Positions 3,983 through 42,124 of a stretch of 42,124 nt of DNA are shown piece after piece. The notes under the pieces were generated by a model, which worked only from the letters and a program-made list of their open reading frames with translations, was not told the DNA's origin and made no database searches. Origin of the DNA: a virus (Duplodnaviria; Heunggongvirae; Uroviricota; Caudoviricetes); IMG/VR virus record IMGVR_UViG_2909282993_000003, positions 1-42,124 of that record; one strand, given 5' to 3'. How positions within the stretch are numbered: the first letter of the stretch is position 1; the number at the start of each line of letters is the position of its first letter. The translations under genes were made by a program, and so were the position numbers.

Positions 3983-4174
3983 TTAAAGACCTGCCGGGAT
4001 TTCGTTATTATCCTGGTGAATAACTTTATCGACCGGGTAACAGTTACCGGGAATTTTCTGTTCGGTTGCTGCAGTCATACATTCCTGCATTGTCCTGTGA
4101 ACACTGACTGCAATATCAACTGGCTCTCCGGAAACAAGATAAACTGTCAGAACAAGCGCAAATGCTGAATTCAT
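3983..4174 (-). CDS. ydfD: YdfD-like small protein (Qin prophage lysis-associated protein)
   Basis: 63-aa product MNSAFALVLTVYLVSG... with hydrophobic N-terminus; start overlaps dicB stop by 4 nt (ATGA-type coupling), as in the dicB-ydfD arrangement. Confidence 0.7.
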   Translation of the reverse strand: MNSAFALVLTVYLVSGEPVDIAVSVHRTMQECMTAATEQKIPGNCYPVDKVIHQDNNEIPAGL

Positions 4175-4359
4175 TGTGCACATCCTTTTGGCATCAGACG
4201 TAAACGAGCCAGCATTGAAACAATGCATATTTTATTTAATAGCTCCCGTTCTTGTTTTCTCTTGTTAATGGCATCTTCAGTAAATACTGGGTTACTGATA
4301 GTGACACCAATTTCAAAACAACCTTCAGACGTATTAACGTTTGGTAATAACGTTTCCAT
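4171..4359 (-). CDS. dicB: Cell division inhibitor DicB
   Basis: 62-aa product METLLPNVNTSEGCFEIGVTISNPVFTEDAINKRKQERELLNKICIVSMLARLRLMPKGCAQ, which matches my recollection of E. coli DicB nearly residue for residue; sits about 170 nt downstream of the DicF sequence. Confidence 0.85.
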   Translation of the reverse strand: METLLPNVNTSEGCFEIGVTISNPVFTEDAINKRKQERELLNKICIVSMLARLRLMPKGCAQ

Positions 4360-4528
4360 TATCGCGTCCTCAACAATGAATTTTGTGATGCGGTGCCTGG
4401 TGCCTCCAGGTGACGTTAACCAGTTAACAATTAACGCCGGATACAGAGAACCCACCCATAACACTGTTTTTGGTTTTAACTGTTCCGCGTGCGCTCAGCC
4501 GCATTCACCGCATCACAAAATTCACTTT

Positions 4529-4586
4529 AAAAAGGGCGGCAGAGCAGTCACGGAGTAAAACTGATACCGCTAAACGCCACCAGAAA
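4529..4586 (-). ncRNA. dicF: DicF small RNA (ftsZ-targeting antisense sRNA) with intrinsic terminator
   Basis: Reverse complement reads TTTCTGGTGGCGTTTAGCGGTATCAGTTTTACTCCGTGACTGCTCTGCCGCCCTTTTT, differing at about two positions from the DicF sequence I recall; ends in a GC stem plus U-run. Confidence 0.85.
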
Positions 4587-4917
4587 ATTGATAACAGAGG
4601 GCGTTGCAGCGGGGTTGTCACTTAAGCGTATGGTCAACCTGACAACCCGGTGTCCTCAACGGGGAAGGAATAACCCCGCCATACTTACCGCCGCGCCATT
4701 TCGCGGATTGCCACAACCGGAAGCGCACGGTCGAATTAAATTTAACGACACCGTACAGACAGAATAACTTCGCCGTGCGCTTTCGCGTTATGTCCTGACT
4801 TTTCAGGGATATATCCTTCCAGTAAACTGCCAGTGCCGGATGCTCACCCGTGTCCGGCGCACGCACTCCACCTGACCCGTGGAGAACTCCTTAATTACCA
4901 ACCCTCAGGAGGGTGAA

Positions 4918-5139
4918 ATGACTAGTAAAAATGTAAATATCCAGTTTAACCACGATGTTTCTCCTGCTGGACTTGCGGATGAGCTCACTGCTATAAAAAC
5001 GGCAATTATGCTACTTGCTGCTAAGTTGCCTGCGTCATCAAAGCCAGCGGAAATTTGTGACTCATTGCGTAAGATGAATTCAACAAAATGCAATGAGATG
5101 GCATCACTTATTGAAAGTGCAATTGATTTTAATGATTAA
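4918..5139 (+). CDS. Hypothetical small protein (73 aa), opposite strand to the dicB operon
   Basis: ATG preceded by a strong Shine-Dalgarno (AGGAGGG, 7 nt spacing); 3' end overlaps the convergent 124-aa ORF by 11 nt. No recognisable domain. Confidence 0.4.
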   Translation: MTSKNVNIQFNHDVSPAGLADELTAIKTAIMLLAAKLPASSKPAEICDSLRKMNSTKCNEMASLIESAIDFND

Positions 5140-5503
5140 TCGAAATTTCATGGCTAACTGTAACACTCCCATCTGTGGCGGGATGGTTTAAATCGCTGGG
5201 ATTAATGCCGCACTCAGTAAAATGGTTCTTAAGGGGTTCTATCCGAATCCCTTTCTTTTTCATTAACAAGCCAAACCCCTTATCAATGATATCCATTAAT
5301 TCCAGGAGGTATTTTTCATGTAAATCCTGGTTATCAGAGAGCTGCTTCTCTTCGTACAGACCGATAAAGGCACGACGCACGTTACCGGATATAGTATCGA
5401 TGGTTTCTTTTTCTACGGTACTCAGGTCAAGAGTCGCCAGTTGGGAACGAACTATATTCGCTGCCATTTCCTGGAATTGCATTGGTAAATCTTTAAATTC
5501 CAT
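5129..5503 (-). CDS. Hypothetical protein (124 aa) between ydfC and dicF
   Basis: ORF with a GAGG ribosome-binding site about 8 nt upstream of the ATG; co-oriented with the dicA-ydfABC-dicF-dicB operon. No recognisable family. Confidence 0.5.
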   Translation of the reverse strand: MEFKDLPMQFQEMAANIVRSQLATLDLSTVEKETIDTISGNVRRAFIGLYEEKQLSDNQDLHEKYLLELMDIIDKGFGLLMKKKGIRIEPLKNHFTECGINPSDLNHPATDGSVTVSHEISINH

Positions 5504-5525
5504 TATTAGCCTCGTTGGTTAGCTA

Positions 5526-5744
5526 TTAACGTGGGTATGTAATCATTCTGGCAATGCTTAATGCCGCTGCTTTTTCCAAATTGGTGATATCCTGCTCCAG
5601 AGCGGACAGATTTTCAGCCTGCTTAGCCTTGGCTTCATTGGCCCATTTCAGGTCCTGCGCGGCCTTAATTTTCTGGCGCATCCACTCATAAAGCTCATCA
5701 TCGGTATAGTCTGGCGCGATGATGACGGGTTCTCGTTTCTGCAT
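5526..5744 (-). CDS. ydfC: YdfC-like small protein
   Basis: 72-aa ORF in the position and size of Qin ydfC, immediately downstream of ydfB in the dicA-led operon. Confidence 0.6.
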   Translation of the reverse strand: MQKREPVIIAPDYTDDELYEWMRQKIKAAQDLKWANEAKAKQAENLSALEQDITNLEKAAALSIARMITYPR

Positions 5745-6251: not shown

Positions 6252-6659
6252 TTATTGATGCTTGTTGCGTTTGCGAGCCTCTAATAGCTCGGTGAACAGG
6301 CGATTAAAATTCTCAACGCGGGCGCGGAGTTCGCTGAGTTGTGCTTGTTGCTCTGATTTAGGAAGTGCGCGATACAAACGCATCATCTCTAACTCATCTT
6401 CCGATAAGTCTAGGGTACTATCGAGTGAAACAGGGGGAGCTGGTGTTTTGTCCTCGTCGCCAAACAGTATCCAGGTTGGTGAACATTGCAATACCTCGGC
6501 GAGGCGATGCAAATTTTGCCCGCGCGGGGCTGTATGGTCACTTTCCCATAATGAAATTGATGAGCCAGATACGCCAGCAGCTTTGCTTAAACCGTTTTGA
6601 CTTAAGCCTACCTGCTTACGTCTTTCTCTAATGCGTTGACCTAAAGTTTTCTCGTTCAT
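6252..6659 (-). CDS. dicA: HTH-type repressor DicA (XRE family, cI-like immunity repressor)
   Basis: 135-aa product from the internal Met MNEKTLGQRIRERRK...; LQCSPTWILFGDEDK and C-terminal ...LRARVENFNRLFTELLEARKRNK match recalled E. coli DicA closely; divergent from dicC. Confidence 0.9.
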   Translation of the reverse strand: MNEKTLGQRIRERRKQVGLSQNGLSKAAGVSGSSISLWESDHTAPRGQNLHRLAEVLQCSPTWILFGDEDKTPAPPVSLDSTLDLSEDELEMMRLYRALPKSEQQAQLSELRARVENFNRLFTELLEARKRNKHQ

Positions 6660-6736
6660 ATTTAGATATCTTAATAACCCTTGACTTGAGATTCCTTGAG
6701 TGATTAGCATTGAGAAAACTCAATATTGGAGGTGCG
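6660..6736. promoter_or_regulatory. Divergent dicA/dicC promoter-operator region with imperfect palindromes
   Basis: Intergenic segment between divergent repressor genes; contains ATTTAGATATCTTAAT (palindromic core AGATATCT) abutting the dicA start and TTGAGAAAACTCAA (5-bp arms TTGAG/CTCAA) next to the dicC ribosome-binding site. Confidence 0.45.
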
Positions 6737-6964
6737 ATGTTTAAATCAGACGTAATTAATTTTTACGGTACGAAAGCCAAAGTAGCGAAAGCTGCTGGCG
6801 TTGACCCATCTGCTGTTTCTCAATGGCAAGAGCTCGTTCCTGAAGGTCGCGCGATGCGTCTACAGGAGGCATCTGGCGGGGAGCTTCAGTATGATCCCAA
6901 AGTTTATGACGAATATCGTAAGACGAAGCGGGCGGGGCGGTTGAACAATGAAAATCACTCCTGA
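6737..6964 (+). CDS. dicC: Cro-like regulator DicC
   Basis: ATG at 6737 preceded by GGAGGTG; product ends ...LVPEGRAMRLQEASGGELQYDPKVYDEYRKTKRAGRLNNENHS, matching recalled DicC. Confidence 0.85.
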   Translation: MFKSDVINFYGTKAKVAKAAGVDPSAVSQWQELVPEGRAMRLQEASGGELQYDPKVYDEYRKTKRAGRLNNENHS

Positions 6965-10344: not shown

Positions 10345-11004
10345 CTAAATATGTATATGTTTACCAACAACCACATATGAACTACCTGCTTTGCTCCATG
10401 ATTTTATTATTTCTAAATTATTATCTGAGCATATTTTACTTACAGTATCCACATCTAATAAACCATAGTAGAAAGCATTACGAGAGTTTTGGTATATATA
10501 CCCATGCAAATGTTTAATACCGCTCTCGTACCTCTTGAAATAAGAACTTTTGTATTGATTGACAATCAGTGCTTCACCATCACTCTTTAATAATTTTCTA
10601 ATCGCACTGAGGACTTTGTGAATTGTGGATTCACATGGAATTGCGGAAAGCACGTTTGCGCAAAGTATGAAATCATAATGATTTGTTATTTTATCTATAT
10701 TTTCATAAGAAACAATATTAGCATTCTTATAGTTATTTATCACGTAATCTGGAATCGTGGTTTGTACACCTCTGATAATTTGCACTCTTTCTAGTTGTCT
10801 TCTGGAATCTAAAAATGTCACAGTTTCAAATTTATTTACTAATTGTTCTGAATATCTAAGTTTTCCACATCCAAAATCAAGGGCATTGCCATTTTTATTA
10901 GTGCTTTCAATCTGTTTACAGAGATAGTTAGATGGCATAGTGTGCGGTTTCGCTGCATTTTCTGAACGTATGTTTATTCCATTTATTTTGTAATTCAAAA
11001 TCAA
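10345..11004 (-). CDS. Class I SAM-dependent methyltransferase-like protein
   Basis: 219-aa ORF with motif I ALDFGCGKL (GxGxG), downstream acidic and hydrophobic motif YDFILCANVL and LKSDGEALIV, consistent with a Rossmann-fold methyltransferase; AT-rich; 6-nt gap after the upstream membrane-protein gene. Confidence 0.8.
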   Translation of the reverse strand: MILNYKINGINIRSENAAKPHTMPSNYLCKQIESTNKNGNALDFGCGKLRYSEQLVNKFETVTFLDSRRQLERVQIIRGVQTTIPDYVINNYKNANIVSYENIDKITNHYDFILCANVLSAIPCESTIHKVLSAIRKLLKSDGEALIVNQYKSSYFKRYESGIKHLHGYIYQNSRNAFYYGLLDVDTVSKICSDNNLEIIKSWSKAGSSYVVVGKHIHI

Positions 11005-11718: not shown

Positions 11719-12448
11719 ACATTCAAAAAAAAGCTAATCTTCTATAATAACGAAATTCAGCTGGCACAATTAAAGATTAATTGCCACCAATTTCTTGATT
11801 TTATAATTTTATCTAAATGTTTTTGATTAATCTAGTCCTAAAAGAAACCTACTGCATAAATATTTATGCTGATGACCCACTCCCTGTTCGTTAACACATA
11901 GCAACGTTAGTAATGCATCCTAAGTGATCAATATTTTTGCTAGCTTCATCTGCTCGCTCAAAGGGAACTATAATGTTGGCTTGCGTGTGACTTGGCATGT
12001 TTAAAGAAGTGCTGGTGGTGACTGGTTGCTGTTTTCCATTTCCACAGAACAAAATCATAGAAACTATACCCAGTAGTTGTATTGAATCACTGACGAGACA
12101 GCCTCATATTTATCAGGACTGGTGTACGTCCAATACAGGAGGTTGTGGTGCTGGTTCTCAAATGTGCGCTGGCTATTGCTGCTGTAATGGCAATTTATTG
12201 TCTTGCTGTTGTTCTTATGGATCACCTTTCTGATTGATTTCATATTGGCGAGGTAACGGTAGTTAAGTAGAATTGCTGCGGGTGCTTGAGGCTATCTGCC
12301 TCGGGCATCAACACCAAAGGCAGATAGAGAAAAGCCCCAGTTAACATTACGCGTCCGGCAAGACGCTTAACATTAATCTGAGGCCATATCTATGCTCTAC
12401 ACACGTAGGTTAGCCTCTTACGTGCCGAAAGGCAAGGAGAAGCAGGCT

Positions 12449-12604
12449 ATGAAGCAGCAAAAGGCGATGCTAATCGCCCTGATCGTCATCTGTTTAACCG
12501 TCATAGTGACGGCACTGGTAACGAGGAAAGACCTCTGCGAGGTACGAATCCGAACCGGCCAGACGGAGGTCGCTGTCTTCACAGCTTACGAACCTGAGGA
12601 GTAA
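12449..12604 (+). CDS. hokD: Hok/Gef family type I toxin (HokD/RelF-like)
   Basis: 51-aa product MKQQKAMLIALIVICLTVIVTALVTRKDLCEVRIRTGQTEVAVFTAYEPEE, a typical Hok single-TM peptide matching recalled HokD; upstream 9-bp perfect hairpin at 12292-12327 and a downstream GC hairpin plus intrinsic terminator, typical of hok mRNA folding elements. Confidence 0.85.
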   Translation: MKQQKAMLIALIVICLTVIVTALVTRKDLCEVRIRTGQTEVAVFTAYEPEE

Positions 12605-15739: not shown

Positions 15740-15815
15740 GGCCCTTTAGCTCAGTGGTGAGAGCGAGCGACTCATAATCGCCAGGTCGCTGGTTCAAATC
15801 CAGCAAGGGCCACCA
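15740..15815 (+). tRNA. tRNA with CAU anticodon (Ile2/ileX-like or Met)
   Basis: 76-nt cloverleaf folded by hand: acceptor GGCCCTT/AAGGGCC, D arm GCTC/GAGC, anticodon loop CTCATAA, T loop TTCAAAT, 3' CCA encoded; closely resembles recalled host ileX. Confidence 0.85.
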
Positions 15816-15816
15816 A

Positions 15817-15893
15817 CCGCCACTGGCTCATCAGGAAAGAGCGTCAACCCTTTAAGTTGAGTGTGCGAGGTTCGAGTCCCCGGTGGCGGTCCA
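15817..15893 (+). tRNA. tRNA-like gene, anticodon ambiguous (loop CCTTTAA; reads UUU with a non-canonical C33); possibly degenerate
   Basis: Acceptor CCGCCAC/GTGGCGG, D arm GCTC/GAGC, T loop TTCGAGT, CCA encoded; T stem has one mismatch; anticodon loop lacks the conserved U33. Confidence 0.5.
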
Positions 15894-15895
15894 GT

Positions 15896-15971
<76 letters not shown>

Positions 15972-15974
15972 TAT

Positions 15975-16049
<75 letters not shown>

Positions 16050-41857: not shown

Positions 41858-42124
41858 ATGCTGCCGCAGCATAGCGATATTGAAATAGCCTGGTATGCTT
41901 CGATACAGCAGGAGCCGAATGGCTGGAAGACCGTCACCACACAGTTCTACATCCAGGAATTCAGTGAGCATATTGCGCCACTTCAGGATGCTGTAGATCT
42001 GGAGATCGCAACGGAGGAAGAAAACTCGTTGCTGGAAGCCTGGAAGAAGTATCGGGTGTTGCTGAACCGTGTTGATACATCAACCGCACCTGATATTGAG
42101 TGGCCGACTTCACCTGCAGAGTAA
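41858..42124 (+). CDS. Tail fibre assembly protein, C-terminal portion (likely 5'-truncated tfa)
   Basis: 88-aa ORF ending ...[36 protein letters not shown], the conserved Tfa C-terminus; shorter than a typical Tfa (about 190 aa). Confidence 0.6.

Follow-up and report, generated by a model that had tools for sequence, protein, structure and literature searches.

The dicB operon codes for two regulators, both toxic, of the division and metabolism of its host. Between two of its members, ydfC and the gene for the small RNA (sRNA) DicF, a lambda-like Escherichia coli prophage (IMG/VR record IMGVR_UViG_2909282993_000003, positions 1 to 42,124, the whole of which is called the window below) carries a pair of open reading frames (ORFs), and the question is what such a pair does there. 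An earlier note, made from the sequence of the window alone, had described the two ORFs as convergent and overlapping by 11 nt at their 3' ends, one of 124 amino acids (aa) on the minus strand, which is that of the operon, the other of 73 aa on the plus strand, and the ORF listing confirmed this description. They are named here gene A and gene B, respectively. We tentatively propose, at a little under an even chance, that they form a polymorphic accessory cassette of the ‘moron’ type, situated at a recombination hot spot of the lambdoid early-left (dicB) operon, in which B would be an autonomous antisense unit and A an early lytic gene.

An insert between ydfC and dicF

The interval from ydfC to dicF measures 940 nt in the window, versus 340 nt in the Qin prophage of K-12. 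The additional DNA was located by alignment with phage Tritos, in which ydfC, the spacer and DicF are present: Tritos is collinear with the window up to position 4903 and resumes at about 5506, which delimits the insert listed in Table 1. The suspicion of the earlier note that the pair had been inserted in this spacer was thus well founded. In Tritos, the empty site ACCAACC/TTAGCTTCGTTGGT (the slash marks the junction) is a hairpin, and the insert occupies its loop. The ends of the cassette were examined for target-site duplications or terminal repeats, and none were found.

Phage morons are extra transcription units lying between conserved lambdoid genes, such as bor and lom of λ, and the concept is said to come from Juhala/Hendrix 2000. 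Two traits by which morons are recognized were found here. The cassette is absent from collinear relatives (K-12 Qin and Tritos) and stands between genes that are adjacent there, and its base composition is unlike that of its flanks, with a GC content of about 40% (0.38-0.43) versus 0.52-0.55 in the adjoining spacer.

In a survey of 5426 complete E. coli genomes, 4591 (~85%) contained at least part of the dicF/ydfC region, at 10,974 places in all. The N-terminal module of A occupies 1591 places in 1358 genomes, and the part specific to the cassette type of the window, with its 73-aa B protein (B73), 106 places in 100 genomes, mostly of enterotoxigenic E. coli (ETEC). The pair is therefore far from general among Qin-type prophages, and both ORFs are conserved as proteins (see below), two points on which the proposal of the earlier note depended.

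Exchange of the A C-terminus and of B between alleles

At the same place, PPompW prophages of enterohaemorrhagic E. coli (EHEC) carry a different convergent pair, of 135 and 77 aa, with a 23-nt overlap. The match of PPompW DNA with the window stops at 4917, immediately ahead of the ATG of B, and resumes at 5391, so that the ribosome-binding site (RBS) of B is common to both and the first ~60 residues of A are 72% identical. The C-terminus of A and the whole of B are unrelated between the two.

The allele set was built with the N-terminal 53 residues of A, which retrieved 80 viral contigs and two E. albertii loci; these were parsed along with PPompW and the window. At least four cassette types were found, all sharing the first ~38-55 codons of A and the RBS of B, the C-terminus of A and B being replaced by unrelated sequence. 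Type I, that of the window, associates a 124-aa A (A124) with B73 (20 loci, overlap of 11 nt). Type II associates an A of 106 or 109 aa with an unrelated 91-aa B (27 loci, 23 or 32 nt), and type III a 133-aa A with a 92-aa B (13 loci, 41 nt). Type IV is the PPompW pair (1 locus). Residues 1-95 of A are common to types I and II, their B proteins being unrelated. By eye, B73, B91 and B92 had been suspected to be distant homologues; hhalign did not support this, and related B73 to none of the other B proteins.

A124 was also found without B73, at 20 loci. The seven of these that were inspected are A-only, since the stop codon of A abuts the spacer. At four others (L034, L037, L039 and L040), a convergent protein of 148 aa with two hydrophobic helices takes the place of B, ~80-525 nt downstream of A. 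It belongs to phrog_6315, a family without functional annotation, and resembles superinfection-exclusion-type membrane proteins.

Both genes encode conserved proteins

The B ORF spans 86 aa if read from a GTG at 4879, and 73 aa from the ATG at 4918. Direct reading of the sequence places an AGGAGG 7 nt upstream of this ATG, within the palindrome CCCTCAGGAGGG, and a GAGG 6 nt upstream of the ATG of A, in agreement with the earlier note, which had credited both ORFs with good RBSs. In identical prophages the two ORFs are annotated by the NCBI Prokaryotic Genome Annotation Pipeline (PGAP) as WP_000394538.1 and WP_000202162.1.

A matches phrog_6937 over its full length (1-124 of 124 profile positions, E 1.3e-81), and its N-terminal module is also present in phrog_1363, 2151, 9419 and 33007, with other C-termini; phrog_6937 has no functional annotation. 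Homologues of A form 239 clusters, almost all from Escherichia with a few from Salmonella, and a scan of one genome per species found the module in E. albertii only. The protein can be divided into a conserved N-terminal module (residues 1-55), a helical middle (56-95), a variable disordered tail (96-119) and an invariant end, ISINH. Its dN/dS (Nei-Gojobori) is 0.2-0.4 overall and, by region, 0.19, 0.18, 0.44 and 0.02 in that order. Over the last five codons synonymous change is frequent, the proportion of changed sites being 0.34 for synonymous (pS) and 0.01 for nonsynonymous (pN) ones. In its AlphaFold2 (AF2) model, three helices precede a tail (92-124) with a predicted local distance difference test (pLDDT) score below 50. 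The structural search with this model gave as sole significant match a 52-aa stand-alone version of the A N-terminal module, in phage phi191.

B matches phrog_7249, likewise without functional annotation, over its full length (1-73 of 73 profile positions, E 5.8e-46). It has few close relatives. Its distant homologues, obtained by exhaustive HMMER and profile searches, are of 71-107 aa and 37-74% identical, come from Salmonella, Yersinia and metagenomes, and share the motif ELxAIKxAxxLIxAKIPxxxxPxxIxDSLR. The dN/dS of B (Nei-Gojobori) is 0.12-0.28, including Salmonella comparisons in which dS was saturated. Its AF2 model is a small three-helix protein (pLDDT 75.7), with no match among PDB or predicted viral structures.

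The PGAP annotation, the diverged full-length homologues and dN/dS values well below 1 make A and B more than chance ORFs; judged on their sequences, both are genuine protein-coding genes under purifying selection. That B is not a gene, its ORF being a by-product of an antisense or structural RNA, is barely credible: conservation of its leader region even where B is missing would fit, but its dN/dS, with dS up to saturation, its full-length homologues with their motif and the strong RBS common to all cassette types speak against it. Both proteins are acidic and devoid of hydrophobic segments, the highest 19-residue Kyte-Doolittle mean being 0.56 for A and 1.27 for B. Neither gave any match in Pfam, NCBIfam, PADLOC or PDB sequence profiles, and the hidden Markov models of PADLOC-DB 2.0 for defence systems returned no family at E up to 1 for A, B or the PPompW pair. 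No paper was found on these proteins, by accession or PHROG identifier, or on an insert at this position.

In at least nine complete ETEC genomes, an IS1 lies inside A and leaves a 104-aa truncated product, with B intact. The split gene was seen in L005 and L101 (E. coli 99-3165, 1136-2082). This insertion cuts dicF and dicB off from the operon promoter.

A convergent overlap conserved with unrelated partners

The B73 family was then followed outside the dicB site. Eight further loci were fetched, including one in a second E. coli prophage, which gives nine contexts with the window. In each of the nine, which come from E. coli, Salmonella, Yersinia and unassigned prophage contigs of enterobacterial type, a lytic operon, early-left or late, ends with a gene to which B is convergent and whose 3' end it overlaps. 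The partner proteins differ between contexts; the convergent overlap is constant. In E. coli (L093), the partner is a 126-aa homologue of A placed directly after ydfA (overlap of 11 nt). In Yersinia, it is a 76-aa protein encoded between antiterminator Q and holin genes (L087, 17 nt) or a zf-C4_ClpX protein (Pfam 36.5 bits) next to cI (L089, 83 nt), and in Salmonella (L091, 20 nt) a 111-aa protein after a Cox-like gene. The remaining partners are of 66 aa (L095, 17 nt), 57 aa (L096, 17 nt), 81 aa (L097, 41 nt) and 70 aa (L098, 23 nt), the last resembling the N-terminal module of A. The L095 and L096 partners have sequence in common with the C-terminal half of type III A.

Several observations accompany these contexts. 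The zinc-finger partner of Yersinia (L089/L090, 4185-4457) is 90 aa long, has a ClpX-type C4 finger (PF06689) and adjoins the cI repressor. In L093 and L094 the A/B cassette directly follows ydfA, without ydfB or ydfC, so that the upstream neighbour of the cassette is itself variable. The 76-aa Yersinia partner had been suspected by eye to be an A N-terminal domain, and hhalign did not support it. A fusion origin of type III A was also considered; the genes upstream of KHII-type partners were checked and are not A-like.

Twelve junctions were compared: that of the window, L002, L087, L089, L091, L095-L098, and those of types II-III in L006-L073. The two genes overlap at every one of them, by 11, 17, 17, 17, 20, 23, 23, 23, 32, 41, 41 and 83 nt. 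Each of these 12 lengths is 2 modulo 3, so that the reading phase of one gene relative to the other never changes, not even between junctions with unrelated B proteins. The partners of B73 all carry [ILY][ST][IVF][NRKH] near the C-terminus, in codons that lie antisense to the end of B. In this phase, the TAA or TGA of B dictates the last two residues of the motif, and the first two are free. A functional peptide had been envisaged, and the idea was not retained, half of the motif being explained by the stop codon of B read antisense. The simplest account of the constant phase would be that the last codons of the partner travel with B as one piece of DNA. A phase-fixed 3' overlap conserved across unrelated partner genes is a regularity of these junctions.

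A structured leader and candidate signals for B

A position-weight scan upstream of B gave a promoter-like site, TTTTCA-N17-TAAACT, which has the best sigma-70-like score within 260 nt. Sites of similar quality lie 88-89 nt from the ATG in L093, Salmonella L091 and L096, and promoter-like sites about 30-34 nt from the ATG in four unrelated B contexts.

Downstream of this site, RNAalifold on six sequences folded the plus strand into the leader hairpins H1 and H2 and a third hairpin that masks the Shine-Dalgarno (SD) sequence of B (Table 1), with 22 pairs, -33.6 kcal/mol and 3 pairs showing compensatory changes, versus 18 pairs and -25.8 kcal/mol on the minus strand. No pair of H2 or of the SD hairpin is broken on the plus strand. 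Variable leader positions form G.U pairs on the plus strand only and A.C mismatches on the minus strand, and the RNAfold z-score is -4.3 for the plus versus -2.3 for the minus strand. A terminator-like hairpin with a T-run follows B, inside A, and a comparable hairpin lies inside the partner gene in five of the nine B-family contexts.

The promoter-like site and the leader are held by the ydfC-dicF spacer. This spacer is kept in cassette-less operons, K-12 Qin among them, and is 91-94% identical in the Tritos and PPompW phages. In Salmonella L091, spacer and B are conserved as one unit (72% identity), though A and DicF are missing, which links the leader to B. The cassette-less operons may be deletion derivatives; otherwise, the plus-strand RNA would have its own role. 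Retention of the spacer, together with G.U pairing on the plus strand only, may betray an RNA, so far unannotated, that is antisense to the pre-DicF transcript. Nothing on the ydfC-dicF spacer or on an antisense RNA there was found in the DicF/dicB literature and the K-12 sRNA survey.

The DicF-proximal part of the spacer (4610-4706) also resembles, at 78-82% identity, the leader of the ban operon, which C1 controls, in phages P1 and P7 (P1 is L099, 2501-2595), and the P1 match adjoins the annotated ‘dicF-like region’ of that phage. The same sequence is found again directly downstream of cI, in phage cdtI as well as in Stx2c phages.

Features of the window

Positions of the cassette, of its signals and of the surrounding genes are collected in Table 1. 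Elsewhere in the window, Rfam RF01794 matches the sok antitoxin RNA at 12280-12454 (+) with 114 bits, and the prophage thus has a hok/sok type I toxin-antitoxin locus away from the cassette. Four tRNA genes, Met(cat), Lys(ttt), Thr(tgt) and Gly(tcc), are clustered at 15740-16049 (+), and the Rfam family IS009 matches the right end of the window at 41881-42084 (+) with 129 bits. A sub-threshold match to STnc100, a Salmonella sRNA family, covers the dicF-dicB spacer at 4327-4536 (-), with 39.4 bits for a cutoff of 47.

Table 1. Cassette, predicted signals and surrounding genes in the window.
Feature	Position	Strand	Remarks
Cassette insert	4904-5505		602 nt; blastn and MAFFT versus phage Tritos (L003) and K-12 Qin (L004)
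Gene A	5129-5503	minus (operon strand)	124-aa ORF, between ydfC and DicF
Gene B	4918-5139	plus (antisense to operon)	73-aa ORF from ATG, between ydfC and DicF
A/B 3' overlap	5129-5139		11 nt, TTAATGATTAA; includes both stop codons
Conserved ydfC-dicF spacer	4586-4903		Holds B leader and promoter-like site; kept in cassette-less operons
Promoter-like site	4800-4828	plus	-10 (4823-4828) ends 89 nt before the ATG of B; position-weight scan
B 5' leader H1	4833-4843 with 4850-4860	plus	RNAalifold
B 5' leader H2	4866-4871 with 4879-4884	plus	RNAalifold
B anti-SD/SD hairpin	4887-4891 with 4907-4911	plus	CUCCU with Shine-Dalgarno AGGAG; RNAalifold
Terminator-like hairpin and T-run	5231-5263	plus	92 nt past the stop of B, inside A codons ~81-91
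Cro-like gene	6710-6964	plus	
Helix-turn-helix repressor	6252-6710	minus	Faces Cro-like gene
ydfA (DUF1391)		minus	Early-left operon, between repressor and ydfB
ydfB		minus	Early-left operon, between ydfA and ydfC
ydfC	5526-5744	minus	Upstream neighbour of gene A; ORF and PGAP annotation of identical region
DicF sRNA	4534-4585	minus	Rfam RF00039, 68.6 bits (gathering score 48)
dicB	4174-4362	minus	Pfam DicB, 1.4e-40
ydfD (DUF1482), then 823-aa exonuclease		minus	Distal early-left operon

Discussion

A proposed accessory cassette with genes on both strands

The arrangement suggests how such a cassette might work. A would be read with the operon, its N-terminal ~55 residues being common to all alleles and its C-terminus exchangeable, and for this reason would be made only once the repressor is lifted, early in the lytic cycle. 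B would form a separate transcription unit directed against the operon, with its own promoter-like site, a leader of ~80 nt and a terminator-like hairpin inside A, the last leader hairpin pairing with its SD. In a lysogen, B would be the expressible gene, and is probably expressed there. After induction, transcription of the operon would run antisense across the whole of B, the 3' end of B being itself antisense to the end of A. Expression of A and B would then be mutually exclusive, because induced operon transcription crosses B and because B extends at its 3' end into A. The convergent overlap and the structured leader thus point to antisense or translational control of the A/B pair itself; control of dicF or dicB does not follow from them.

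Compared with morons, the cassette shows the same location between genes that are adjacent in relatives, a GC content lower than that of its flanks, and candidate promoter and terminator signals for B. As with λ bor, B is oriented against the lytic operon, and the cassette is present in a minority of related prophages. Unlike morons, it has two genes, one of which, A, is presumably transcribed with the host operon and has a common N-terminus in all alleles, its convergent 3' overlap and phase are conserved, and lysogenic expression of B is putative. We see the cassette as a variant of the moron, or accessory-cassette, theme, unusual for its conserved architecture and its phase regularity. A further parallel is oop of λ, which overlaps cII. 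In that case also, a lambdoid transcript runs towards an early gene and overlaps its 3' end, which ties lysogenic to lytic expression. But oop is a non-coding RNA of 77 nt whose position is fixed and universal, whereas the antisense unit of B codes for a protein and, as a cassette, is optional and can be swapped.

As for the role of small proteins that are swapped so fast, phage-phage or phage-host conflict appears likeliest, rather than self-addiction, as suggested by the rapid replacement of alleles, the place in lytic operons and the small size.

Several points weigh against this proposal of an accessory cassette with an autonomous antisense B. The promoter-like site fits 8 of 12 consensus positions, and for this reason was missed by a stricter standard scan. 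Terminator-like sites are no commoner in the region than in shuffled controls, and only five of nine contexts have one inside the partner gene. The leader covariation is suggestive only, as it comes from ~4 independent sequences, and the leader may serve something besides B, since it persists with the promoter-like site in cassette-less operons such as K-12 Qin. A conflict role is argued from position and variability alone, and neither sequence nor structural searches gave a homology or fold match that would assign a biochemical function to A or B.

Alternative explanations

The alternative that survives best, somewhat unlikely in our view, is that A and B are two unrelated accessory genes that became neighbours by chance, without functional or regulatory link, the overlap and its phase coming from shared junction ancestry and genome compaction. 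Each gene does occur alone or with unrelated partners, the last two residues of the partner motif are imposed by the antisense stop codon of B, and terminator-like sites are not enriched. However, an overlap, of 11-83 nt and constant in phase, exists at each of the 12 junctions, three of which have a B protein unrelated to B73. Moreover, B was never seen without a convergent overlapping gene, and the contrast between pS and pN over the last five codons of A also speaks against mere neighbourhood.

A more specific explanation, which we consider unlikely, is a defence and self-immunity pair. B, expressed in the lysogen, would block phages, whether incoming or resident; A, produced early in the lytic cycle, would neutralize B through its variable C-terminus, and alleles would co-vary to maintain the fit between A tail and B. 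This agrees with the joint exchange of the A C-terminus and B at the dicB site, with the predicted disorder of the A tail, as expected for a segment that folds on binding, and with the motif common to all B73 partners. It also agrees with the antisense orientation of B to lytic operons, and with the two-helix membrane protein, typical of exclusion factors, that can occupy its place. On the other side, no known defence system of PADLOC-DB 2.0 is matched, types I and II share A residues 1-95 yet have unrelated B proteins, co-variation of adjacent DNA is expected from linkage alone, and A-only alleles have the same tail end.

Two known arrangements may be compared with A/B. The first is BstA/aba of Salmonella phage BTP1, a prophage defence with cognate self-immunity, in which BstA is large and the immunity element is DNA. 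The early-left place near the repressor is similar, as would be a lysogen-expressed factor neutralized during the lytic cycle of the phage itself; no similarity in sequence or fold to A/B exists, and a defence function of B is putative. The second is that of polymorphic toxin/immunity cassettes, which resemble A/B by a conserved N-terminus, a variable C-terminus and an adjacent small gene that co-varies. Unlike them, A is a cytoplasmic-type protein of 124 aa with no hit to a toxin-family, trafficking or secretion domain, and its partner is convergent, not co-directional downstream.

A bolder version, quite unlikely in our estimation, sees in the pair a prophage conflict module of a kind not yet described. 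In it, a lysogen-expressed, leader-controlled B would be physically locked, through a 3' overlap that is obligatory and fixed in phase, to any early lytic gene placed before it, and the C-terminal tail of that gene, partly read from the 3' end of B, would recognize or neutralize B. If true, this would be a portable ‘defence plus self-immunity tail’ unit, turning any upstream early gene into the antidote of B.

The earlier note had also raised a toxin-antitoxin-like insert. Such an addiction module, either type I-like or made of two interacting proteins, now looks very unlikely. The convergent 3'-overlapping layout in a prophage and the small proteins without assigned function do recall txpA/RatA and bsrG/SR4, which are 3'-overlapping convergent type I toxin-antitoxin pairs of Bacillus prophages; if the A and B transcripts also overlap at their 3' ends, they could pair, for cleavage by RNase III. 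But no toxin or antitoxin family was matched in Pfam, NCBIfam, PADLOC or PDB, neither protein is the small hydrophobic toxin of these systems, and the antisense partner, B, encodes a conserved soluble protein rather than a non-coding RNA. Loss or breakage of one gene can leave the other in place, as seen in the common A-only prophages and in the genomes with an IS1-broken A and an intact B, and partners are promiscuous, even unrelated. A type II system fits no better, as A and B are convergent instead of forming a co-directional bicistronic unit, match no known toxin or antitoxin family or fold in Pfam, NCBIfam, PADLOC, PDB or predicted viral structures, and do not obligatorily co-occur.

Significance for the dicB operon

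The accessory cassette that we tentatively favour concerns one of the most widespread prophage modules of E. coli. About one in seven such dicB operons has a swappable two-gene cassette just upstream of DicF, with a putative antisense transcription unit directed into the operon. The site is a new accessory-gene hot spot that could be mined for uncharacterized phage conflict genes. The expression levels of DicF and DicB may also possibly differ between strains (ETEC, EHEC and K-12), through convergent transcription from the cassette or its leader.

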